Below are positions 6,164 through 57,062 of a stretch of DNA of 59,242 bases, in pieces; position 1 is the first letter of the stretch; each line of letters starts with the position of its first letter. A model generated the notes under the pieces. That model worked only from the letters and a program-made list of their open reading frames with translations, made no database searches and was not told the DNA's origin. The position numbers and the translations under genes are program-made. Where the stretch lies: the NCBI GenBank assembly GCA_050486185.1, contig JBJHCT010000004.1, positions 1-59,242 on the forward strand, given 5' to 3'. This DNA comes from Candidatus Saccharimonadota bacterium. GTDB taxonomy: Bacteria; Patescibacteriota; Saccharimonadia; QS-5-54-17.

Positions 6164-6967
6164 ATGGAGCAGCCATTTACAGCAGTTGTGGGGGTAGAAA
6201 GTAGAAGCCAGTACTTGGAACTGGCTCAAGAAGTTGCTGATAGAGATCGCTCACTAGGTGAATTAGCGGTCGGAGTTTTGATGAGCGAAAAAACTGGCTT
6301 ACTGGGATTACCTAATCGTCACGGAGAAATTTATCCTGACTTTGATCGACTAGATGCTATAGCTCATGCAGCTGAGAGTCTCGATAATCTTGGCCTACCC
6401 ATCATAATTCACTACAACACAGATAATCCTGATAGGGTGGGAGATCAATTGATTAGAGCTCTAGCTCCGTATCCAAATATAAAATTGGTCCAGGTCAACG
6501 GACTAGACCTAGATCAACTTCGCAAATTACGCAAACTCAAAGAATCTAAAGACATTTCAATTATTATGCAAGTTAATGCTCAGCTATTAGAGTCTCATAC
6601 CCCGAGTGAGTTAACTCAAGCTATAACTAGGTTCGATGAGGAGGTAGTGAGTTATGCTTGGCTAGATGGTTCTGGAGGCTTAGGTAAAAAGCTAGATTGG
6701 GAGAAGCTAGAACCATTCGTAAAAGAATTGCAAGGGGTCGGCATAGGCGTAGGTATAGCTGGTGGTTTGAACCCGGATAACTTAGAAGAAATGCTACCTG
6801 ATATACTAGATAGTTATACAGAAATAAGCTGGGATGCTCAGAGCGGCGTGATGGATACGATCGATAGAGGGATACAGAGATTTGATACTAATAAAGCAAA
6901 GAACTTCTTGGTTAAATCTATGCAACTAAGACAACAAATTGCAGCTAGAGATGCCGATGCTGCTTAA
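6164..6967 (+). CDS. Phosphoribosylanthranilate isomerase (TrpF)-like TIM-barrel protein
   Basis: 'LVQVNG', 'LDGSGGLGKKLDWEKL', 'IAGGLNPDNL' and 'SWDAQSGV' follow the order of the PRAI signature blocks (LHG / D..GGtGk.fdW / lAGGl.p.Nv / vD.sSGvE). No other trp genes in the window. Confidence 0.45.
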   Translation: MEQPFTAVVGVESRSQYLELAQEVADRDRSLGELAVGVLMSEKTGLLGLPNRHGEIYPDFDRLDAIAHAAESLDNLGLPIIIHYNTDNPDRVGDQLIRALAPYPNIKLVQVNGLDLDQLRKLRKLKESKDISIIMQVNAQLLESHTPSELTQAITRFDEEVVSYAWLDGSGGLGKKLDWEKLEPFVKELQGVGIGVGIAGGLNPDNLEEMLPDILDSYTEISWDAQSGVMDTIDRGIQRFDTNKAKNFLVKSMQLRQQIAARDADAA

Positions 6968-7760
6968 AGGAAGTGAAATCGCCGGTTATATCAAGGTTGC
7001 TCAAGCACAAACTGTGCGTAGTTTTCAGTATACCGGCAAGCAACCACAGCTAGCTATCATAAACTGTGGCGATAGAGTAGTAAGTAGTAAGTATATAGAG
7101 CTAAAACAGCAGTACGGAGAGGATATAGGGGTTGGGGTGAGTAAGTATGATGTTGAGCCTAATGATCTTATTAAGCAAATTGAAAAACTTAATAAAGATC
7201 CTGAAACTCACGGTATTATAGTCCAGCTACCACTACTAGAAGGGATAGATACAGACAAGATTCTAGATAGTATCGACCCGCAAAAGGATGTCGATGGATT
7301 GGGCGATAACTCTGTTTTTGACCCGGCTACACCCACGGCTATATTGTGGTTGTTGGCAGGATATAATATTGATTTAGAGGGTAAAGAGATAGGGGTGGTT
7401 GGACTTGGTAGATTGGTAGGTGCATCGCTAGTAAAACTTCTTGAGAGTTCAGGACACAAACCCATAGTTTGTGATGAGGATAGTGGTAACTTAGAAGAAT
7501 TGATGGAAACTTGCGATATAGTGATTACCGCTACCGGTCAACCAAAACTAATTACCAACAAACTAATTAGACCTAATCAAGTAATTATCGATGCCGGTAC
7601 TTCTAATGATAACGGTAGTTTAGTGGGTGATGTCGATCCATCTACTTATGAGAGAAATGATATTAAAATCAGCCCAGTACCTGGTGGTGTTGGGCCTCTA
7701 ACAGTTTGCGCTTTATTTGCTAATGTAGTTGAGGCTTTTAAGACTCTAACGCTTGAGTAA
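6951..7760 (+). CDS. folD: Bifunctional methylenetetrahydrofolate dehydrogenase / methenyl-THF cyclohydrolase
   Basis: 'HGIIVQLPL', 'DPQKDVDGL', 'PATPTAILWLL', 'VVGLGRLVG' and 'PVPGGVGPLTV' motifs. Start is ambiguous (ATG at 6939, 6951 or 6957) and overlaps the upstream gene. The 3' end overlaps the convergent response-regulator gene by 23 nt. Confidence 0.85.
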   Translation: MPMLLKGSEIAGYIKVAQAQTVRSFQYTGKQPQLAIINCGDRVVSSKYIELKQQYGEDIGVGVSKYDVEPNDLIKQIEKLNKDPETHGIIVQLPLLEGIDTDKILDSIDPQKDVDGLGDNSVFDPATPTAILWLLAGYNIDLEGKEIGVVGLGRLVGASLVKLLESSGHKPIVCDEDSGNLEELMETCDIVITATGQPKLITNKLIRPNQVIIDAGTSNDNGSLVGDVDPSTYERNDIKISPVPGGVGPLTVCALFANVVEAFKTLTLE

Positions 7761-8112
7761 CTCTTTCAGCTACCTGTTTAGGTGTAAGATCGGCTTTAAC
7801 TATGAATGAGTCAACACTTAAGTCTTTAAGATTAGCTGGAGCTTCAGACTCCCCCATATTGGTTAGAATAATAACTTTAATGTTTTTACCCCAATCTTCT
7901 TTGCGCATAATCTCTAACATCTCAGCGCCACCCATAATTGGCATCATCAAATCAAGTAGTACTAGGTCTGGCTGAAAGTCTTTAACAACCTCTAGTCCTT
8001 GCTGTCCATCACTGGCATAAGCCACATCAAACCCCTCGGCTTCGAATTTCATCCGATACATCTGGACGATTGCTAGATCGTCTTCTATGAGGACTATCTT
8101 TGCTTTAGCCAT
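7738..8112 (-). CDS. Receiver-only (CheY-like) response regulator
   Basis: 'IVLIEDD', 'DLVLLDLMMP' (phospho-acceptor Asp), 'VIILTN' and 'KA' blocks. About 124 aa with no output domain. Start taken at MAKAKI. Confidence 0.85.
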   Translation of the reverse strand: MAKAKIVLIEDDLAIVQMYRMKFEAEGFDVAYASDGQQGLEVVKDFQPDLVLLDLMMPIMGGAEMLEIMRKEDWGKNIKVIILTNMGESEAPANLKDLSVDSFIVKADLTPKQVAERVTQALES

Positions 8113-8143
8113 AAATACCACTTGTTTATAGTTACTATTTGCT

Positions 8144-8158
8144 ATACTGTAACAGTAT
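8144..8158. promoter_or_regulatory. Perfect 7-1-7 palindrome ATACTGT-a-ACAGTAT in the divergent intergenic region
   Basis: Read directly. Lies 32 nt upstream of the response-regulator start and 127 nt upstream of the GNAT-ThiF gene, in a very AT-rich spacer. Confidence 0.3.
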
Positions 8159-8284
8159 TAATAATAAAGCAAATAAAGCATAAAGCCAATAAAAATAAAA
8201 ATAATAAACAGTCGTACACAGCTACACGGTATTTACATATAATAAAAAATATGTTATAAATATAAATAATTTAAACCTAATCAT

Positions 8285-9940
8285 ATGGAGAAGCGTATGG
8301 TAGCCCATAAAAGCTCACTAGAGATTTCTAGCCCAGCCAGACCCAACCTATCACCTCAACTATCTGACTCTCAAGAAGTTCTAGGTTCTCTGGAAAGAGA
8401 CTTCGAATTAGAGGAGTCTAGATTTAGACTCAATATTAATCCTGATAATGAGATCATGACGAAGGCCTTTAAGCTTAGGGCCGATGTTTATGGTAAGGAA
8501 ATGGGGTTTTTGGACCCAGATAAAATCGACCAAGAAGAAGGTATTGAGACGGATATATATGATAAGTATTCTACCCACATCGTAGTAGAAGATGATAGTG
8601 GTAGTGTTGTCGGTAATATGAGGCTTATACATGAAAGCGAAGTTGACGTTCTGCCTGTTGGGCACTTCTTTAATATATTTGTTCCCGAAGGGTCAGTTGA
8701 GGCTTCTAGATACATATCTAGAACTAAGGATCCCAAGGATCAAAGAGCGATATCTATTGCTTTAATTAGAGCCGGCACAGAACAGGCTATAGATGCAGAT
8801 GCACCTTACATATATATGACCATAGAAAGGGATCTTTACGAGATGTTTATAAATATGGGCATACCGTTAGAAGTTGTAGATGACCCTAAATTTATAAAAG
8901 AGTACAATACTACTAATATGGCTTGCAGAGTCAACCCTAGACGTGTTGCAGCTGGAATATTAGAGGCTGACACATTACTGAAACCAAGTCGTAAAGGAAC
9001 TCTAAGGACTAGAAGGACTAAACTTTCCCCATTTTTCTACAACTCTAGCTTGAGTGATATAGCTAGCGGGTTTAGTAAGTCTGATTTAGAGGCGAGAATG
9101 AGACCGTTTGAGCGCAATCTAGGTTTTCTTTCTAAAGAGGATCAAGAAAAAATAATGAGCTCTAGAGTTTCTATAGCTGGTACTGGTGGTGATGGTGGTA
9201 TGCTTGCTTTGCAACTTGCTAGGTTGGGTGTTGGTAGTTTTAAGCTAGCAGACCCAGAAGTATTTGAATTAGAGAATTTAAATCGCCAAGCAGCATCTAC
9301 ATATAAGACTATAGGCAGAAATAAAGCTGAAGTTATAGCAGAATCTATTTTAGATATTAACCCCTCTGCCAATATCGAGGTTTTCACCGATGGGGTTCAG
9401 ACTGGGAATGTGGAAGAGTTTGTTAGAGGTAGCGACTTAGTAATAGATGAAACAGAGTTTACAGTCCCAGGCATAGGTGTGATGATAGCTAGAGAATCTA
9501 GAAAACAAGGAAGACCAGTCTTGATGGCTCTTAACGTTGGTTATGGTTGTTATGTAACCTCATTTGATCCAGAGGGGTATACTTTTGAAGATATGATGGG
9601 TATAGATAAAAATGCTCCGTTATCAGAAGTAGCAGACCAAGAGATACCTATTGAACGCTGGGTTGGCCATATACCGAGCTATACCGACTTGAGAGTATTA
9701 GAAAAAGTGTCTAATGGCGAAATGACTGCACCATCTGTAGCTCCTGGAGTCGCTATGGCGGCTGGGGTTGCTTCTACTCAGGCTATTTGGCGCATACTTG
9801 GGTATAAAGGTCGCTTTGCTGATGCGACAGCACCAAACTGCCTGTCGTTCGATGCTGTAGACGGTTTTAAGCTAGTTAAAGACACACCAGAAGGATTCAG
9901 ACAATCAATTGGTAGGCTAGCTTTTAATAACTCTCAGTAG
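8285..9940 (+). CDS. Fusion protein: N-terminal autoinducer-synthase/FeeM-like GNAT acyltransferase domain plus C-terminal ThiF/E1-like adenylyltransferase domain
   Basis: The N-terminal 'FKLRADVYGKEMGFLDPDK..EEGIETDIYDKYSTHIVVEDDSGSVVGNMRLI' fits the LuxI / N-acyl-amino-acid-synthase pattern (R..VF..e.gw...g.E.D.yD...H.l..d..g.vvG..Rl). The C-terminal 'IAGTGGDGGMLALQLARLGVGSFKLADPEVFELENLNRQ' is the ThiF/MoeB/E1 nucleotide-binding signature. Confidence 0.6.
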   Translation: MEKRMVAHKSSLEISSPARPNLSPQLSDSQEVLGSLERDFELEESRFRLNINPDNEIMTKAFKLRADVYGKEMGFLDPDKIDQEEGIETDIYDKYSTHIVVEDDSGSVVGNMRLIHESEVDVLPVGHFFNIFVPEGSVEASRYISRTKDPKDQRAISIALIRAGTEQAIDADAPYIYMTIERDLYEMFINMGIPLEVVDDPKFIKEYNTTNMACRVNPRRVAAGILEADTLLKPSRKGTLRTRRTKLSPFFYNSSLSDIASGFSKSDLEARMRPFERNLGFLSKEDQEKIMSSRVSIAGTGGDGGMLALQLARLGVGSFKLADPEVFELENLNRQAASTYKTIGRNKAEVIAESILDINPSANIEVFTDGVQTGNVEEFVRGSDLVIDETEFTVPGIGVMIARESRKQGRPVLMALNVGYGCYVTSFDPEGYTFEDMMGIDKNAPLSEVADQEIPIERWVGHIPSYTDLRVLEKVSNGEMTAPSVAPGVAMAAGVASTQAIWRILGYKGRFADATAPNCLSFDAVDGFKLVKDTPEGFRQSIGRLAFNNSQ

Positions 9941-9951
9941 GTATTCAGTAA

Positions 9952-9980
9952 TTAGCTAGTTAGCTAGTTAGCTAGTTAGC
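9952..9980. repeat. Octanucleotide tandem repeat (TTAGCTAG) x3.6
   Basis: ttagctag ttagctag ttagctag ttagc read directly, 12 nt after the stop of the GNAT-ThiF gene and 33 nt before the kinase start. Confidence 0.85.
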
Positions 9981-10012
9981 ACAATAGACTACTTGCATAT
10001 ATAATAATTGTT

Positions 10013-12145
10013 ATGGATTTGCACTTAGGGACTAGTATTCTGCTGTCCTCAATACTATTTTCTATAGGTTTTATAGTTTTAGCCAAGAATTACCGAAATA
10101 AGCTAAATGTTTATTTTTTCGGTTTTTCAACGCTTTTGTCTCTATGGGTTTTGTCTAATTATTATAGTAATGACTTTACCTTATCTCATGAACTAGCTCT
10201 ACTGTCTAACCACTTAGTTCTATTTTTTTCAGCTGCTTCACTAGTTTTTTTGATGAGGTTTACAGCTATTATTGCCTCTCATAATATTAGATATTTAAAT
10301 ACTCTAACGTCCATAGTTATTATCGGCTCTATATTAGGATTAACACCATTGGTTATTGTAGATATATACGAACAGCAAGGTGTTTACGCTATAGAGTTTG
10401 GATTACTTGCATCAATGTATTTTGCCAGCATCTTTACTAGCATACTAGTCTCTTTATGGCAGCTTATAATCGGTTATATTAAAAATGAAGGCATTGTGAG
10501 GGCGAGGATAGTTATTGTCTTGTTGAGCCTAGCTATAATGACAATACTATCTGTTATAACCAATGCCCTGATACCCATATTGACTGGCTCTTTTGCTCTT
10601 ACAAACCTTGGCCCATTTGCAACTATATTTCTAGCACTGGGGATGGCTTATGTAATCGTTAAGCACCGATTGTTTGATATACGTCTAGTTATTGCTAGGT
10701 CTATCGCTTACGTGCTAGTCATAGCAACTCTTGGTTTAACCTACGGACTAATAGTCTTCAATATAGTCGATAGATTCTTCCCCGGCACTCAAACCACTAC
10801 CTTGCAACAAGCCATCTACACTCTACTTGCAGTATTTCTAGCTTTTACTTTCCAGCCCATCAAACGCTTCTTTGATAAACTAACTAACCGAATATTTTAC
10901 CGAGACCGATATGATACCGAAGAGGTACTAAACTCTTTAGGCAAGATATTTGTCAGTAAAAGTAATAGTTTTGAGCTACTAGATGAGAGCCTTCAGGTTA
11001 TCAAAGATACTCTCAAAGTCGAGTTCGGTAGACTGGTAGTTTTGGGTAAAGATGGGATATATAAATCTACCCATATTGGTTCCCATGAAGATATAGAGGT
11101 GAATACCGACAGCCTTAATCGCTTTACTGAGCAGATCAGTATTTTGGATGAAATTGAAAACGACAACGACAACATTAAAGGCGCACTAAAAGATATGAGA
11201 GCTTATGCTCTAGTTAGACTATCGACCCAAGATGGATTAATCGGCTACATGATTTTAGGTTCTAAATCTTCTGGTACTATCTACACCCAGCAAGACATCA
11301 ATATGTTAGAGATACTGTCTCAGGAACTAGCTGTAGCTATCCAAAACGCCAAGAGCTACGAGGAGATACAGGCCTTCTCAGAAACTTTGAAGCAAGAAGT
11401 AGAAGATGCTACTGCTAAGTTGCGTGAGACCAACGAGAGGTTAATTAAACTAGATGAGGCCAAGGATGAGTTTATCTCTATGGCTTCACACCAGCTACGC
11501 ACACCACTTACAACCGTTAAGGGATATTTATCTATGCTACTAGAGGGTGATGCCGGAAAACTATCGAAAAAACAACACGAATTTGTCGACCTATCCTTTG
11601 TCAGCTCTAAACGGATGGTGCACTTAATTGCCGATATGCTTAACGTTTCAAGAATTAGCACTGGTAAACTAATGATCGATAAGACTGAGGTTGATATGTT
11701 GGAATTAGTTCAAGAAGAAGTCGATCAGTTGAAGCGCCAGGCCGAAGCTAGGAATGTGAAATTAATCTTGCATAAACCAAAGAGTAAACTACCTAAACTT
11801 AGCCTAGATGAGACCAAGATCCGTCAGGTAGTTATGAACTTTACCGATAATGCGATCTATTACTCTCCGGAGGGCAAAGTAGATATCTATCTAGAAAATA
11901 AAGACGATTCAGTAGAATTTAGGGTAGTTGATAATGGTATAGGTGTATCTAAAGAGGCCCAAAAAGAGCTATTTAAAAAGTTCTTTAGAGCTGAAAATGC
12001 TAAAACTGTCAGACCAGATGGTACAGGCCTAGGACTCTACATGGCCAAGCAGGTGATAGAGCTACAAGGTGGTGAAATAATCTTTGAAAGCCAGGAAGGC
12101 AAAGGCTCGACATTTGGTTTTCGTTTTAATACCAACGACAACTAG
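10013..12145 (+). CDS. Sensor histidine kinase with polytopic (about 6-7 TM) N-terminal sensor region
   Basis: Multiple hydrophobic helices in the first ~290 aa. H-box 'SHQLRTPLTTVKGY', N-box 'NFTDNAIYYSP', G1 'VVDNGIGV', G2 'GTGLGLYMAK'. Confidence 0.9.
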   Translation: MDLHLGTSILLSSILFSIGFIVLAKNYRNKLNVYFFGFSTLLSLWVLSNYYSNDFTLSHELALLSNHLVLFFSAASLVFLMRFTAIIASHNIRYLNTLTSIVIIGSILGLTPLVIVDIYEQQGVYAIEFGLLASMYFASIFTSILVSLWQLIIGYIKNEGIVRARIVIVLLSLAIMTILSVITNALIPILTGSFALTNLGPFATIFLALGMAYVIVKHRLFDIRLVIARSIAYVLVIATLGLTYGLIVFNIVDRFFPGTQTTTLQQAIYTLLAVFLAFTFQPIKRFFDKLTNRIFYRDRYDTEEVLNSLGKIFVSKSNSFELLDESLQVIKDTLKVEFGRLVVLGKDGIYKSTHIGSHEDIEVNTDSLNRFTEQISILDEIENDNDNIKGALKDMRAYALVRLSTQDGLIGYMILGSKSSGTIYTQQDINMLEILSQELAVAIQNAKSYEEIQAFSETLKQEVEDATAKLRETNERLIKLDEAKDEFISMASHQLRTPLTTVKGYLSMLLEGDAGKLSKKQHEFVDLSFVSSKRMVHLIADMLNVSRISTGKLMIDKTEVDMLELVQEEVDQLKRQAEARNVKLILHKPKSKLPKLSLDETKIRQVVMNFTDNAIYYSPEGKVDIYLENKDDSVEFRVVDNGIGVSKEAQKELFKKFFRAENAKTVRPDGTGLGLYMAKQVIELQGGEIIFESQEGKGSTFGFRFNTNDN

Positions 12146-15351: not shown

Positions 15352-16107
15352 ATGCCCGACCAAGTACAACTAAGAGGTGGTACAGCAAGTGATAATGACA
15401 ACTTCACTGGAGCAGCCAGAGAAGTTACAGTAGATACTACTAATAAGACTCTTAGAGTACATGATGGAGTAACAGCAGGAGGATCTAAACTAGCAGCTTA
15501 TGATCAGTGGGGTAGATTACAAGTAGAAGACCCAGAGAATGATAGTGACGTAGCTAATAAGCAGTGGGTGGAAGGGCATGTTAGCGATTCAGCCAACACT
15601 CAGTGTATTGATGAGGTGCGTTTGGATACATCAGGCTCGTTCGACTTTACGGATATTCCAGCAACCTATAGACACCTTGTAATTAAGTTGGCGGGTCGTA
15701 GTTCAGATAGCGCTACTAACGTTGTAGATGTTAACGTGCGCTTTAATAATGACACTGGAGCAAATTACGATAGGCAAATGCTACGTGGGTTCGGTGCTAA
15801 TGCTACCGCAAGCGAATCGCTAGCACAGACATTCATGCCTTTTACGTGGGCGCTGCCAGGAGCCAATGCGCCTGCTGATGTAGCTGGTAGTGGTATTTTG
15901 CACATTCCCGATTATGCCGATACTACCTTTCATAAGACACTAGTGGCGTCCTTTGTTGGTAAAACTGCAAGCCACGCCACGCTCATACATGAATACGGAG
16001 GCTACTGGAGGTCTACAGCTGCTATTAACCGCATAACTATCACTACTCATGCGGGAACTTTTGCGGCGGGTAGTATTGCTACGTTATATGGTATGAAGGG
16101 AATTTAG
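15352..16107 (+). CDS. Phage tail-fibre-like protein (Mtd/hyaluronidase-type N-terminal fibre motif), paralog 1
   Basis: 'VQLRGGTASDNDNFTGAAREVTVDTTNKTLRVHDGVTAGG' fits the (I/V)QL(R/K)(R/G)GT..n...GE..vdTdt..lk.GDG.T motif at the N-terminus of many tail fibres. 'DVANKQWVEG' matches the fibre 'DA.NK.yVd' motif. Homologous along its length to 56238-57062. Confidence 0.6.
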   Translation: MPDQVQLRGGTASDNDNFTGAAREVTVDTTNKTLRVHDGVTAGGSKLAAYDQWGRLQVEDPENDSDVANKQWVEGHVSDSANTQCIDEVRLDTSGSFDFTDIPATYRHLVIKLAGRSSDSATNVVDVNVRFNNDTGANYDRQMLRGFGANATASESLAQTFMPFTWALPGANAPADVAGSGILHIPDYADTTFHKTLVASFVGKTASHATLIHEYGGYWRSTAAINRITITTHAGTFAAGSIATLYGMKGI

Positions 16108-52828: not shown

Positions 52829-53596
52829 TTAGTATTTTATACAGTATAAAAGAGCTACGTTCCGAGGTCGTGCTTCGCTCCCACCATCAGGATTTGTGGT
52901 TATATCATGACTATGGTTTGCTGTTGAATCTACTGATACTGTGTGATTGTGATCGCCGGAAGATGATATCTGGCCAGACATCCAGACTAAACCAAAATGA
53001 TCTAATTGACGTGCCCATGTAGGGGTATTGCCGGAATAAGTCCCTGTTCCTAAGCGGTTGCTATGAGAGTGGGAACCTGTTGTATTTGTTGACGCGCTAT
53101 GAGTGTGTTCTCCACTAGATTGAGTCGATCCACCATGAGAGTGTTCTTTGTTAAGGTTTTCTTGGGTTGAACCTATACTCCTATTAGTATCTATTCCTCT
53201 ACCATCATCCCATCCTCTAATAAATTCTGCGCGTAAATCAGGAACGTTGAATGTTGTAGACCCATCACCTTCGCCGTAAGCTACTCCTATGGCTGTAAAT
53301 AGATCAGAATATGTTGTGCGAGATACAGCTTCACCATTACATTTCAACCAACCGCTTGGTGGCGTATTCATAGCAAATGCTTGTACTGCTCCCGCAGGTA
53401 ATCCGGATCCTCTAGCAGACAACTCAACGATAGCTTGCTGCACATTATCTGCTTCCAGATCCGAGCCTTGGTTGTTAAAAGGCATACTGCTGAGGTTAGC
53501 TTTAGTTAAATCTATAGTTCCATTGGAGTTTAATACTATACTCGGCTCATTTGAGTCTGGATGTTGAATTCTGCTAACCCTTATTACAGACGACAT
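52829..53596 (-). CDS. Phage tail-collar domain protein with His-rich (HxHxx) repeats (MdpB-like)
   Basis: 'GWLKCNGEAVSRTTYSDLFTAIGVAYGEGDGSTTFNVPDLRAEFIRG' matches the tail-collar fibre domain. Repeats EHSHGG / EHTHSA / SHSHSN / DHNHTV / NHSHDI follow, and the C-terminal 'EARPRNVALLYCIKY' is typical of the family. Start ATG at 53596 (the TTG at 53599 is in the track). Confidence 0.75.
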   Translation of the reverse strand: MSSVIRVSRIQHPDSNEPSIVLNSNGTIDLTKANLSSMPFNNQGSDLEADNVQQAIVELSARGSGLPAGAVQAFAMNTPPSGWLKCNGEAVSRTTYSDLFTAIGVAYGEGDGSTTFNVPDLRAEFIRGWDDGRGIDTNRSIGSTQENLNKEHSHGGSTQSSGEHTHSASTNTTGSHSHSNRLGTGTYSGNTPTWARQLDHFGLVWMSGQISSSGDHNHTVSVDSTANHSHDITTNPDGGSEARPRNVALLYCIKY

Positions 53597-53624
53597 CAAT
53601 AAGCCTTTCTACCTAATAAAATTT

Positions 53625-53999
53625 CTATTTCTCAGCTAGTCTTTCTTTAACCTTTTTAACTATGTCTGCTAACTCCCAATCAGCCTTGGTTAGGTAGTCA
53701 CTTACTCCCAAACTAAGTAGGTCTAGGACTTGCTGTGAATCATCAGAGTTCGTTAACACTATAACAATGGTATTTTTGCCGCCATCAGTAGCCCTAAAGC
53801 TTGTTAGCATTTCTTTACCATCCATGTTGGGCATTAGTATATCTAGCAATAAAACATCAGGCGCCCAAGTTTTAGCGATATCTAGTGCTTCCTGGCCGTC
53901 ATTAGCAACCTTTACCTCAAATCCTTCATCTCTAAAGGTATCTGCTAAAACGTTTTGAAGGGATGTATTGTCTTCTGCGATTAATATCTTATGTGCCAT
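53625..53999 (-). CDS. Receiver-only (CheY-like) response regulator
   Basis: 'ILIAEDN', 'DVLLLDILMP', 'VIVLTN' and 'KA' blocks; 124 aa with no output domain. Confidence 0.85.
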   Translation of the reverse strand: MAHKILIAEDNTSLQNVLADTFRDEGFEVKVANDGQEALDIAKTWAPDVLLLDILMPNMDGKEMLTSFRATDGGKNTIVIVLTNSDDSQQVLDLLSLGVSDYLTKADWELADIVKKVKERLAEK

Positions 54000-54061
54000 T
54001 ACTGATTAATCTCCTTGTCATTTTTCTCTTATTATCTTAAAAACTATTATAGCAAATCCAT

Positions 54062-55843
54062 TTATTTACTATCTTCCTGGTAATCCTTCATATCAGGTAC
54101 CGTGATAGAGAAGTGGGTGCCTTTACCTGGTTTTGAATCAAACCAAACTATACCACCCAAACGATCAACAGCTGCTTTCATGGTATACAGACCAAGACCC
54201 GTACCCTCGACATTACTAGTTAGAGCGTTCTTGGCTCTAAATAGTTTAGTAAATAGTTTCGACTGCTCATCTAGAGGTATACCCATGCCGGTATCTTCCA
54301 CGCTAATAACTAAGCCATCTTTGAAATGAGAGTCTTTGCCAGAGTATTTAGATAACGATATAGTTATGTGGCCTTTTTCTTTACTATATTTAACGGCATT
54401 AGATATTAGGTTTTGGATGATCATATCTAGTAGCTTGCGATCACTATTAATCTTGATATTACCACTAATCTTAGTTTCGACTTTAAGTTTTTTATCCTCA
54501 ATCATAGGCTCAAGATCCTTGGTGACGTTCTTGACTATATCTTCAGGGCTAACTTTCTCTATCTTTAGCTTTTCAGTCTTAAGCTCTAGCCTCGATACAT
54601 TTAGGTAGTCTGATAACAGTCCGCTCATTCGGGCACTATCCTCATAGATAGTATTCATATATTCTTTTTCTTTAGCGCTCATTTTCAGGGTTTTAAGTAG
54701 TCTTTCTGCATACCACTTAATAGCACTCAGTGGAGTGCGTAGCTGGTGAGAAGCTAGGGAGACAAACTCATCCTTAGCCTTAGCTATGGCTTTTTCTTCA
54801 CTAATATCCCTTAGAACCTCAACGACACCGATATTTTGCCCATCCAGCATTATCGGGCTAGCCGTGATAGCTACGGGGAATGGCTGGTTGTTGTAGTTGC
54901 GGTAGAAGTAGCGGTCGCTTTTTTGCATTTCCTGGCTCTGAATAGTTTGGTGCAACGGGGACTTAGAAGGGGGTATCGGGTTGCCTGATTCATTGTATAG
55001 AGTAAACACTTCACTGTAAGCCTTGCCTACTACATCTTTCTCGTAGATGTTGAACATCTTTTCTACCACTGAATTAATCATAATAATCTCACCACCAGCA
55101 TCGACAGCAATCACACCCTCACCGATGCTTTGCAGCAAGGCTAGGTCTCGAGCTTTCTTGCGTTCTAGAACTTGCAAGTTGCGCTCTAAGCTCTGAGAAG
55201 CCTCTTCGCGCCTACCCATCTCTTCTTGCAATCGAGTATATATACTAGAAAGTTTTTCTTCCTTTTCCTTTAACATGGTAGCTTTTTGATCTAGACTGTC
55301 TTGATAGAAGTAGATAAAGACAGCTACTAAAGAGATACTGAAAATTAGCTGTTGAAAAGTACTAGCATCATAGGAGATTTCAAAAGCTTGGACATATCCA
55401 GCATCAACACTAATAAATAGAATAGCCAGGATTAGCACTAGTATCAAAAGCCAGATGCTGCCGCCGTGCTTGCCTTTCAAGAAAGTGGCAATAATAGGGA
55501 AGATGAAGAACCAAAATACCGTGTTATTGCCTAGGCCCGTAGTCAGGATAGAAAACATCACTAGAGATAACATCAACAATATAACCAGAGAAGAAGTGAG
55601 ATGGTATGAGTGATGTTTAAGTACTGCTAAAGACAGCCATAGTCCAATAATCACTAGGCTATTAAATGTAGCCTGCATTAAAGCCTCGGTGTATAGGAAG
55701 TAGATGGTTTGACCCAAAACTACTAGGATAATTAGATAGATGAAGCGCTTCAAGAAACGCTGTTGATAAGTAGTATCTACCAGCTGTGATATAGCTAGTA
55801 GTGGGTTCTTGTTAGGTTTATCTTTTCGGTTGTCCTGATCCAT
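54062..55843 (-). CDS. Sensor histidine kinase, polytopic N-terminus plus coiled coil plus PAS plus HisKA/HATPase
   Basis: About 6 TM helices in the first 190 aa. PAS-like 'LLQSIGEGVIAVDAGGEIIMINS'. H-box 'SHQLRTPLSAIKWY', N-box 'LISNAVKYS', G1 'VEDTGMGIP', G2 'GTGLGLYTMK'. Confidence 0.9.
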   Translation of the reverse strand: MDQDNRKDKPNKNPLLAISQLVDTTYQQRFLKRFIYLIILVVLGQTIYFLYTEALMQATFNSLVIIGLWLSLAVLKHHSYHLTSSLVILLMLSLVMFSILTTGLGNNTVFWFFIFPIIATFLKGKHGGSIWLLILVLILAILFISVDAGYVQAFEISYDASTFQQLIFSISLVAVFIYFYQDSLDQKATMLKEKEEKLSSIYTRLQEEMGRREEASQSLERNLQVLERKKARDLALLQSIGEGVIAVDAGGEIIMINSVVEKMFNIYEKDVVGKAYSEVFTLYNESGNPIPPSKSPLHQTIQSQEMQKSDRYFYRNYNNQPFPVAITASPIMLDGQNIGVVEVLRDISEEKAIAKAKDEFVSLASHQLRTPLSAIKWYAERLLKTLKMSAKEKEYMNTIYEDSARMSGLLSDYLNVSRLELKTEKLKIEKVSPEDIVKNVTKDLEPMIEDKKLKVETKISGNIKINSDRKLLDMIIQNLISNAVKYSKEKGHITISLSKYSGKDSHFKDGLVISVEDTGMGIPLDEQSKLFTKLFRAKNALTSNVEGTGLGLYTMKAAVDRLGGIVWFDSKPGKGTHFSITVPDMKDYQEDSK

Positions 55844-56237: not shown

Positions 56238-57062
56238 ATGCCCGACCAAGTACAACTAAGAGGTGGAAGTAGCGCAGATAACGATAACTTCACAGGAGCA
56301 CAACGTGAAGTTACAGTAGATACTACCAACAAGACTCTTAGAGTACATGATGGAGTAACAGCTGGTGGACACCAGCTAGTTCAAGGAACAGCTAGCACAA
56401 GTTCAGATGCTGATACTATCATCCAACGTGATGAATGGGGACGTGCTCAAGTAGCAGATCCAGTCAATGCTACTGATGTAGCGAATAAGCAATGGGTAGA
56501 GGGGCAAATTGGTGGGTCGGTGGCGATGGAGCCACTCGGCGAACCTGTAATCGTCGGTGCTGCAGGCGCATCTTCTATTGAATGGGATGCTATCACACAG
56601 GACTTCGATCATTTAAGAGTTGTGTTTGTTGGTCGCTCTAACCGAGACAGTACTTCTGCAGATGCTACTATCGTACGTCTCAACGGCGACGATGGAACCA
56701 ACTATGACCGAATACTAACGCGAGCCACAGGTACCAGCACCACAACAGCAACTTCAAATGGGTCTAATAATTTATTTGGATCAAGTACCTCTATTCCGTC
56801 GGCACTGAATCCAGCTAATCTTGCTTCACAGCAGACGTTTGATTTCTATGACTACTCACGTACGGCATGGGAGAAGCGAGGATCCGCTAGATCTGGCTTC
56901 AAGAACGGAACTGGCGCCTCTAACGTAATAATGGAACACGTCGAAGGGTACTGGCGCAATACTGCCGCTATAACAAGGATTACGCTTTCGGTAGCTGTGG
57001 GTACTGGGTTTGTAGAAAATACCTATGCTCAACTTTACGGTATACGAGGAGGTACAGTATGA
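56238..57062 (+). CDS. Phage tail-fibre-like protein (Mtd/hyaluronidase-type N-terminal fibre motif), paralog 2
   Basis: 'MPDQVQLRGGSSADNDNFTGAQREVTVDTTNKTLRVHDGVTAGG' is 40/44 identical to the N-terminus of 15352-16107. The two also share 'WGR.QV.DP.N..DVANKQWVEG', 'GRS...S', 'R.N.D.G.NYDR' and C-terminal 'GYWR.TAAI.RIT' blocks. Confidence 0.6.
   Translation: MPDQVQLRGGSSADNDNFTGAQREVTVDTTNKTLRVHDGVTAGGHQLVQGTASTSSDADTIIQRDEWGRAQVADPVNATDVANKQWVEGQIGGSVAMEPLGEPVIVGAAGASSIEWDAITQDFDHLRVVFVGRSNRDSTSADATIVRLNGDDGTNYDRILTRATGTSTTTATSNGSNNLFGSSTSIPSALNPANLASQQTFDFYDYSRTAWEKRGSARSGFKNGTGASNVIMEHVEGYWRNTAAITRITLSVAVGTGFVENTYAQLYGIRGGTV

Follow-up and report, generated by a model that had tools for sequence, protein, structure and literature searches.

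Background

The oxazolone synthetase pathway, whose enzymology was published between 2020 and 2025, is composed of an N-acyltransferase of the N-acyl-amino-acid synthase (NAS) type, a ThiF-like enzyme and a flavin oxidase of the nitroreductase superfamily (FDO). In Pseudoalteromonas rubra, OxzA produces N-acyl-tyrosine, from which the ThiF-nitroreductase OxzB makes tyrazolones. In Mycobacterium tuberculosis, acylation is the task of TyzA, ATP-dependent cyclisation that of the stand-alone ThiF homolog TyzB, and desaturation that of TyzC. For TrzA/TrzS, ThiF first catalyses the cyclisation and desaturation follows, and the cyclised, non-oxidised intermediate of TrzS accumulates under limiting oxygen or when the FDO is crippled or blocked. 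The discoverers of the N-acyl oxazolones call their physiological role a major unresolved question, with signalling suspected and no receptor found; the TrzAS authors point out that oxazolones resemble acyl-homoserine lactones (AHLs) and that trzAS in M. tuberculosis is flanked by genes for the turnover of cyclic di-GMP (c-di-GMP). The present analysis concerns a stretch of 59,242 nucleotides (the window) of contig JBJHCT010000004.1 from a Candidatus Saccharimonadota bacterium, recovered from a mine-tailings metagenome, in which a gene fusing a NAS-type GNAT to a ThiF-like domain lies between a receiver-only response regulator and a polytopic histidine kinase. It is put forward here, with our judgement evenly poised, that the three genes are one unit, a small-lipid synthase together with a two-component system that perceives its product.

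A synthase gene adjoins a kinase with a nearly all-transmembrane sensor in LuxM-LuxN and CqsA-CqsS of Vibrio and in LqsA-LqsS of Legionella, where a lipophilic ligand is sensed in the membrane. Kinases of the LuxN/CqsS/LqsS type either are hybrid or signal by phosphorelay to a regulator of the DNA-binding or sigma-54 kind. In candidate-phyla genomes, LuxI homologs have been described by Bernard et al. 2020 (PMC7567580), 18 of them beside sensor kinases, and were read as AHL synthases; the synteny of LuxI-like genes and kinases in candidate phyla was thus already published in 2020 as putative AHL signalling. In the Saccharibacteria case of that study, positions 598 and 600 are those of the LuxI-like gene and the kinase, respectively.

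Results

Three open reading frames (ORFs) were confirmed, at 7738-8121 on the minus strand and at 8285-9940 and 10013-12145 on the plus strand. They encode, in this order, the receiver-only regulator, the GNAT-ThiF fusion and the polytopic histidine kinase, as a sequence-only reading of this DNA had proposed. That reading had named beforehand a neighbourhood not conserved among relatives as a possible refutation; the order is instead kept at essentially all the related loci of Saccharibacteria.

No close relative emerged when genome contigs were scanned with the single protein, and an alignment-based scan was needed; the family alignment yielded 38 genomic loci, to which exact look-up of proteins added further contigs. 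The homolog search rendered about 70 clusters of full-length fusions of 540-560 amino acids, in which all source-given names are Saccharibacteria or Saccharimonadales, and many ThiF-only homologs of about 305 amino acids, each encoded as the second gene in a split cassette of the same context. All 33 Saccharibacteria-type loci have the GNAT, and ThiF is fused or adjacent to it in 33 of 33. A kinase with the same sensor follows less than about 110 nt after the ThiF domain in 30 of 32 loci, the other two being ThiF-FDO loci with the kinase after the FDO. Receiver-only regulators, from one to three and often two or three in tandem, lie upstream on the opposite strand in 23 of 25 loci. The order of regulator, GNAT plus ThiF and kinase is kept at about 40% protein identity with operon-like spacing within the cassette (9-87 nt), while genes outside this unit vary between loci. 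In the published Saccharibacteria case, the skipped gene 599 would correspond to the place where ThiF lies in split cassettes.

The arrangement extends beyond Saccharibacteria. An Uhrbacteria locus has GNAT, ThiF and kinase, and a Moranbacteria locus has ThiF first, then GNAT and kinase. FDO-less pairs of GNAT and ThiF were found in Leucobacter, in another actinobacterium and in Acidimicrobiia, one or two genes from GGDEF-EAL proteins whose N-termini are membrane domains of 7-9 helices. A hidden Markov model of the kinase sensor showed no detectable homology to these polytopic N-termini; architecture alone is common to them. In the Bacteroidota loci, ThiF is accompanied by an FDO and two GNATs, one of them of the FeeM type, and the annotated genes next to the cassette include none for signalling.

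The neighbourhood was also approached from the other side. With the kinase membrane sensor alone, 80 metagenomic loci were retrieved by a pattern search built from an 8-sequence subset of the alignment, the 23-sequence alignment being too divergent, and the 57 loci with at least 2.3 kb of upstream DNA were counted. A NAS-type GNAT lies just upstream of the kinase in 27 of these 57. Its partner is ThiF in 11 loci, ThiF-FDO in 1 and an S-adenosylmethionine (SAM) methyltransferase in 2, and in 13 the GNAT stands alone or with other genes (for example AdoMet-decarboxylase-like). Profile-profile comparison also assigns to the NAS-type GNATs a divergent family that lies just upstream of the kinase in about a dozen loci (96.9%, E 1.7e-10, aligned with window-protein residues 82-204). 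Other loci of the set have a divergent ThiF (3), an unannotated family (4) or a weak FDO-like match alone (2), and receivers lie upstream in 35 of the 57. The kinase family therefore extends beyond the cassette; an N-acyl-amino-acid-synthase-like enzyme is what most commonly adjoins it, and the partner of that enzyme varies.

Alternative pairs occupy the slot between the receiver genes and the kinase in eleven loci (L060, L072, L083, L094, L110, L096, L103, L104, L087, L101 and L126). These are a FeeM-type GNAT with a SAM methyltransferase, an AdoMet-decarboxylase-like protein of 113 amino acids with a divergent NAS GNAT, an unknown protein of about 290 amino acids with a divergent ThiF of about 395 amino acids, and unknown proteins of about 350 and about 195 amino acids. 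The unannotated slot family of about 350 amino acids (A5) is unrelated to the fusion protein by hhalign and has a faint N-acetyltransferase match. The pattern expected from co-diversification of sensor and slot would equally arise if whole loci were inherited vertically.

Gene order might also be inherited without any functional coupling, in a conserved stretch of chromosome, and FolD, a Mur-ligase-like gene and an Asp/Glu racemase are indeed syntenic with the cassette in many loci. This explanation is improbable. The kinase stays adjacent in Uhrbacteria and Moranbacteria, the outer flanks differ among Saccharibacteria, and nearly half of the loci found by the kinase sensor have an upstream NAS-type GNAT despite a different second enzyme. 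The spacing within the cassette is, besides, operon-like.

The fusion gene (8285-9940, plus strand) encodes 551 amino acids. Its true start is probably the second ATG at 8297, giving 547 amino acids, because the database copy has this length and a GGAG-like site precedes this ATG. The AlphaFold2 model of the fusion has a predicted local distance difference test score of 89.5 and a predicted template-modelling score of 0.87, and residues 1-41 alone are predicted to be disordered. The N-terminal half holds a GNAT domain of the NAS/LuxI type (8417-8989, plus strand, residues about 45-235). Residues 58-208 match Autoind_synth with 31.7 bits (cutoff 24), Acetyltransf_5 with 32.2 bits and FeeM with 21.1 bits, the last below cutoff. 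When a GNAT-only profile of the family was compared with PDB sequences, it matched BjaI (best, E 3e-14), TofI, LasI, RpaI and EsaI end to end. The LuxI/FeeM-type assignment made from the sequence alone was thus borne out, both by Autoind_synth and by alignment to solved AHL synthases; a Foldseek search with the full fusion model found its matches mainly through the ThiF half and was uninformative on the GNAT. Invariant residues of the GNAT family are R65, Y69, D93, R113, E139 and R162, with E88, D90 and S141-R142 near-invariant. We take this to be the LuxI pattern R-x3-aromatic ... E-x-D-x2-D ... R ... E-x-S-R, kept in the window GNAT, and the Phe at the aromatic position presumably stands where LuxI-type enzymes have Trp.

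These matches are also what would be expected if the GNAT made an AHL from SAM and an acyl donor, with the ThiF half unrelated or accessory, so that enzyme and kinase formed an AHL quorum-sensing pair, and this is the published reading for candidate-phyla LuxI homologs. Such a pair is very improbable here. ThiF enzymes need a free carboxylate, which an AHL does not have, and ThiF accompanies the GNAT in every one of the 33 loci. Sister loci carry a ThiF-FDO of the OxzB type. TyzA has FeeM and BjaI as its nearest structural homologs and is nevertheless an amino-acid N-acyltransferase, and the NAS-specific models FeeM and TIGR03694 match the window protein or its relatives. As for an AHL receptor, which could be of the LuxR or the LuxN type, the enzyme has a polytopic kinase beside it, and a LuxR-type gene was not observed among its neighbours.

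The C-terminal half is a ThiF-like adenylating domain of the cyclase type (9092-9937, plus strand, residues about 270-551; ThiF 120 bits over residues 276-525). Its family-invariant residues are R277, G299-x-G301-G302, D323, N331/N333-R334-Q335 (the NLNRQ motif), K347 and D388, the last equated with TrzS D217 by motif and not by direct alignment. As judged from these positions, every ThiF adenylation residue appears to be kept as a family invariant. PRK08223 is the best NCBIfam model for the window protein (198 bits) and also for the Mycobacteriales and Bacteroidota ThiFs, and the window domain is 45% identical to a Mycobacteriales ThiF sited between an FDO-like gene and a weak GNAT. No conserved cysteine was found, Cys staying below 30% in every column of an alignment of 65 family members, which excludes thioester or persulfide chemistry of the E1 type as well as a zinc site. 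The marks of E1 and ThiF-MoeB enzymes, namely a catalytic Cys, zinc-binding CxxC pairs and a beta-grasp partner, were not found, the small partner having been sought among ORFs of at least 70 amino acids.

Most characterised ThiF-like enzymes of secondary metabolism act on peptides, and the best PDB matches of the ThiF half include PaaA, MccB and AclA (9egb, the best match, for which nothing relevant was found in the literature). The fusion could then be a peptide or protein modifier, in which ThiF activates a C-terminus as MccB, PaaA and E1 do, the GNAT acylates, and the kinase and regulator regulate the process or respond to it. The chance of this is very small indeed. The neighbourhood has no conserved gene for a precursor peptide or a beta-grasp protein (ORFs below 70 amino acids were not covered), the cysteine and zinc site are missing, no RRE-like peptide-binding domain was detected, and the closest homologs belong to the small-molecule TyzB-like group.

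The fusion thus shows a NAS-type GNAT coupled to a ThiF-like cyclase with an intact adenylation motif, and on sequence grounds it is likely to be related to the oxazolone synthetases. The likeness to OxzA/B, Tyz and Trz is one of domains, motifs and published descriptions, with no direct alignment to their sequences. The link is strengthened by three clusters of Saccharibacteria proteins of 636 amino acids in which ThiF is fused to an Acg-family FMN oxidoreductase (127 bits), the architecture of OxzB and TrzS. These ThiF-FDO fusions stand at L042, L043 and L049 in an identical frame of three receivers, GNAT, ThiF-FDO and kinase, and as sister loci they tie the window cassette to the oxazolone-synthetase family; the coexistence of fused and split gene forms argues for one pathway. 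In six-frame translations, searched with three FDO queries and a Saccharibacteria FDO profile, neither the 59-kb window nor 31 of the 33 related loci gave an FDO match; in these bacteria the form without an FDO, be it fused or split, is thus the common one. The window enzyme is therefore a two-thirds variant with a different fusion topology and no full member of the characterised system.

The FDO domain of L042/L043 (P0087 residues 326-633) matches that of Mycobacteriales locus L036 (5010-6098) with 273 bits (E 5e-82). This similarity hints at gene exchange between Saccharibacteria and the actinobacterial lineages of their hosts.

The kinase (710 amino acids) begins with a sensor domain (10013-10870, plus strand, residues 1-283) of 9 hydrophobic segments joined by short loops. 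Seven of these are strong and two weaker, giving 7-9 transmembrane helices, and none was found after residue 300; the sequence-only reading was right that the sensor is mostly embedded in the membrane and too low in its count of 6-7 helices. Invariant residues of the sensor lie in or near the membrane segments and are polar or small: W45, N49, S52, N66, T183-N184-A185, P188, T197 and G200. HisKA_7TM (PF16927) gives a weak match aligned over residues 10-223 (22.1 bits, cutoff 28.6). The cytoplasmic part (10871-12145, plus strand) holds a weak GAF-like region (about 320-445), HisKA (483-551, with H-box His493) and HATPase_c (599-706), the H-box and the ATPase domain being those of a two-component kinase.

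The thiF-kinase spacer (9941-10012, plus strand, 72 nt) has 29% GC and the divergent spacer (163 nt) 20%, against 42% for the window. The former contains a promoter-like match, TTAGCA-18-TATAAT (9976-10005), with the -10 box (10000-10005) ending 7 nt before the kinase ATG at 10013. A TATAAT-like hexamer ending 6-9 nt before the kinase start recurs in about 22 of 25 orthologous ThiF-kinase spacers (L001, L003, L006, L009-L015, L018, L022-L024, L026-L028, L039, L040, L042 and the window). No terminator-like site was found between the fusion and kinase genes. The position of the hexamer suggests that the kinase may have its own promoter and a leaderless mRNA, and its conservation supports a constitutively expressed receptor.

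The same spacer contains 3.6 copies of the octamer TTAGCTAG (9952-9980). The array was rejected as a regulatory repeat; it is not conserved in relatives, and in a soil-metagenome strain with about 96% identity it is shorter by exactly two units (16 nt) with unchanged spacing between -35 and -10. It is a microsatellite of variable copy number.

The regulator (7738-8121, minus strand) has 127 amino acids when read from a GTG start, an ATG three codons in being equally possible. Response_reg (71.6 bits) is its sole Pfam domain, and the absence of a DNA-binding output described earlier was thereby confirmed. The pocket residues are canonical, with D14/D15, the phospho-acceptor D57, T87 and K109, so that it has the acidic pocket and phospho-acceptor Asp of a two-component receiver.

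The divergent spacer (8122-8284) contains a promoter-like match on the plus strand, TACACA-17-TATAAT (8215-8243), and a perfect palindrome, ATACTGT-A-ACAGTAT (8144-8158). The counts of the promoter and terminator scans were not above those of shuffled controls. The palindrome was rejected as an operator, since an equally good one occurs in 13.7% of shuffles of the 163-nt spacer (about 1 in 7) and it is absent from orthologous spacers, being intact only in the sister strain of about 96% identity. Both the palindrome and the octamer array noticed in the sequence-only reading exist, the former at chance level and neither conserved in relatives. The gene order is far beyond chance; the palindrome and the array carry no weight.

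Several further observations concern the locus and its surroundings. The FolD gene (6939-7760, plus strand) and the regulator gene overlap convergently by 23 nt at their 3' ends, and FolD is syntenic with the regulator in many relatives. Between the two strains, over window positions 7745-8292, the regulator gene differs by about 10% (34/342), the divergent spacer by 2/163 and the fusion gene by about 3.7%, which could reflect a recombination boundary or a constrained spacer. In split cassettes and in Acidimicrobiia, small Gly/Ala-rich multi-transmembrane proteins of two or three families without a Pfam match are encoded directly upstream of the GNAT (L011 5345-5899, L018 5351-5884, L014 5100-5876, L021 5075-5833, L029 5216-5992, L045 1106-1795 and others); the window contains no such protein. 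An ORF from Thermoleophilia (L037, 5983-9021, 1012 amino acids) joins a short N-terminal ThiF fragment to an adenylate/guanylate cyclase, an NB-ARC/STAND NTPase and TPR repeats, and may be an artefact of ORF calling or a remnant.

Elsewhere in the window there is a second two-component pair (53625-55843, minus strand), formed by a MASE/PAS histidine kinase of 593 amino acids and then a receiver-only regulator of 124 amino acids. This second receiver (53625-53999) adjoins its own MASE/PAS kinase, and both regulators of the window are without output domains. Mtd_N, the N-terminal domain of the major tropism determinant, was found in two proteins and a phage tail collar domain in one (15352-16107, 56238-57062 and 52829-53599). 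These may be surface proteins of the diversity-generating-retroelement type or derived from phage.

Discussion

Conserved synteny and the type of the GNAT support the suggestion of a self-contained small-molecule signalling module that was made from the sequence alone. That suggestion overlooked the chemistry of ThiF and the prior art and is incomplete, the ThiF half having been left as an unexplained appendage. A NAS-type GNAT with ThiF is the core of the characterised oxazolone-synthetase pathway, and the chemistry can therefore be predicted much more specifically. By homology, the GNAT domain would acylate the amino group of an amino acid, with acyl-CoA or acylated acyl carrier protein (acyl-ACP) as the donor, to yield an N-acyl amino acid; this amino-acid N-acylation is carried out by OxzA, TyzA, TrzA and FeeM. 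The fused ThiF domain, with its intact catalytic residues, would then adenylate the carboxylate with ATP, and the ring would close. In the characterised relatives the amide oxygen attacks and a 2-alkyl-5(4H)-oxazolone is formed. Because there is no flavin desaturase in the window, the product would stay saturated, and would be neutral, membrane-soluble and hydrolytically labile. Oxazolones are also destroyed by acid and by alcohols.

Such a lipid would partition into membranes and might be bound inside the 9-helix sensor of the adjacent kinase, as conserved synteny and architecture suggest. The kinase would be expressed from its own promoter and would phosphorylate the divergent receiver-only regulator, and the phosphorylated regulator would act through protein-protein contacts and not by binding DNA. 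That the kinase is the receptor of the enzyme product is quite possible, with our confidence falling just short of even. A saturated oxazolone as the exact product is a more tentative proposal. Conserved divergent adjacency points to this particular regulator as a candidate target of the kinase.

Several points weigh against a synthase coupled to its own receptor. The FDO that completes the known pathway is absent from the window and most relatives; its gene may lie at another place in the genome, or some other nucleophile may act on the ThiF adenylate. Saturated 5(4H)-oxazolones react readily and do not last long, an awkward property in a signal. Saccharibacteria are not known to carry out fatty-acid synthesis, so that a source for the acyl donor is not obvious. 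The conserved adjacency fits equally well with a kinase that regulates the enzyme. In 21 of the 57 loci found by the kinase sensor, none of the modelled enzyme families lies upstream, and the kinase family is consequently not strictly tied to a synthase.

The adjacency leads to the alternative that the kinase senses envelope stress or a host cue and controls the enzyme through the regulator, and that the lipid is no autoinducer but a membrane constituent, stress protectant, antimicrobial or host-directed molecule. There is precedent for this, since antibiotics induce oxazolone production in proteobacteria, the tyz genes of M. tuberculosis are tied to oxidative stress and to survival inside macrophages, and N-acyl tyrosine derivatives can be antimicrobial. 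A regulator-target pair would be expected to show the same conserved adjacency, and small membrane proteins precede the GNAT in split-form loci. We nevertheless find this alternative unlikely. The regulator has no DNA-binding domain in any locus, which makes it hard to see how it would directly control transcription of the enzyme gene, and a conserved promoter-like element belongs to the kinase itself. Kinase and regulator persist as a frame around a changing enzyme slot, and polytopic sensors also flank the actinobacterial cassettes, a pattern more typical of diversification of ligand and receptor.

A bolder proposal can be made: the desaturase-less GNAT-ThiF enzyme would make an undescribed class of diffusible lipid signal, with the adjacent 9-helix kinase as its dedicated receptor. 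This is speculative and on balance doubtful. Candidate products would be a saturated acyl-oxazolone or a molecule whose ring is closed by a side-chain nucleophile; side-chain closure would, for example, be an ATP-dependent and SAM-independent route to a molecule like an acyl-homoserine lactone or a thiolactone. The locus would then hold the first receptor matched to a product of any oxazolone synthetase, Saccharibacteria would have a self-contained system of chemical communication, and the variable slot (ThiF, ThiF-FDO, methyltransferase or AdoMet-decarboxylase-like) would give signal dialects across candidate-phyla lineages.

With the enzyme core lying at operon-like spacing beside a polytopic kinase and a receiver in Saccharibacteria and other candidate-phyla lineages, the kinase is a definite receptor candidate for oxazolone-type products. 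Saccharibacteria are epibiotic bacteria with reduced genomes whose actinobacterial hosts include oxazolone makers, and a common lipid chemistry could bear on the recognition of kin or host.

Comparison with known systems

The comparison with agr and com made in the sequence-only reading is loose, since a precursor peptide and a protease to process it are both missing; closer analogies are LuxM-LuxN and CqsA-CqsS. In relation to these and to LqsA-LqsS, the window kinase is non-hybrid, the regulator has no output domain and the synthase chemistry is different, and the likeness noted here is one of architecture. The LuxI-type AHL synthases BjaI, RpaI, TofI, LasI and EsaI, as well as FeeM and NasY, belong to the same GNAT subfamily as the window enzyme, which differs from all of them in being fused to ThiF. 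TcdA, the tRNA ct6A synthase, is likewise ThiF-like and carries out an ATP-dependent dehydration to an oxazolone ring without a flavin partner. It differs in acting on tRNA t6A, in having no GNAT partner and in belonging to another subfamily (51 bits as compared with 198 for PRK08223).

The report on LuxI homologs in candidate phyla (PMC7567580) has no mention of a fused or intervening ThiF, of a link to oxazolone synthetases, of the receiver-only regulator or of a variable enzyme slot. Most of the candidate-phyla LuxI homologs beside kinases are probably N-acyl-amino-acid synthases coupled to carboxylate-modifying enzymes, and the published prediction of AHL production by these bacteria is thereby revised.

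With the oxazolone synthetases OxzAB, TyzACB and TrzAS the window shares a NAS-type GNAT genetically coupled to a ThiF-like ATP-dependent cyclase, conserved ThiF adenylation residues and, as for trzAS in M. tuberculosis, a setting among signalling genes. In contrast to these systems, the fusion partner of ThiF is the GNAT and not an FDO, and with no detectable FDO in the window or in most relatives the known route to the conjugated, coloured arylidene-oxazolone is closed. A dedicated polytopic histidine kinase and a receiver-only regulator also go with the cassette, whose host is a candidate-phyla bacterium with a reduced genome. What appears to be new is the bridge between the synteny of LuxI homologs with kinases and the enzymology of oxazolone synthetases, together with the dominance in Saccharibacteria of the single-chain, FDO-less GNAT-ThiF protein, the conservation of the receiver-only regulator, the changing enzyme slot beside one family of kinase sensors, and the parallel with polytopic c-di-GMP enzymes in Actinobacteria.

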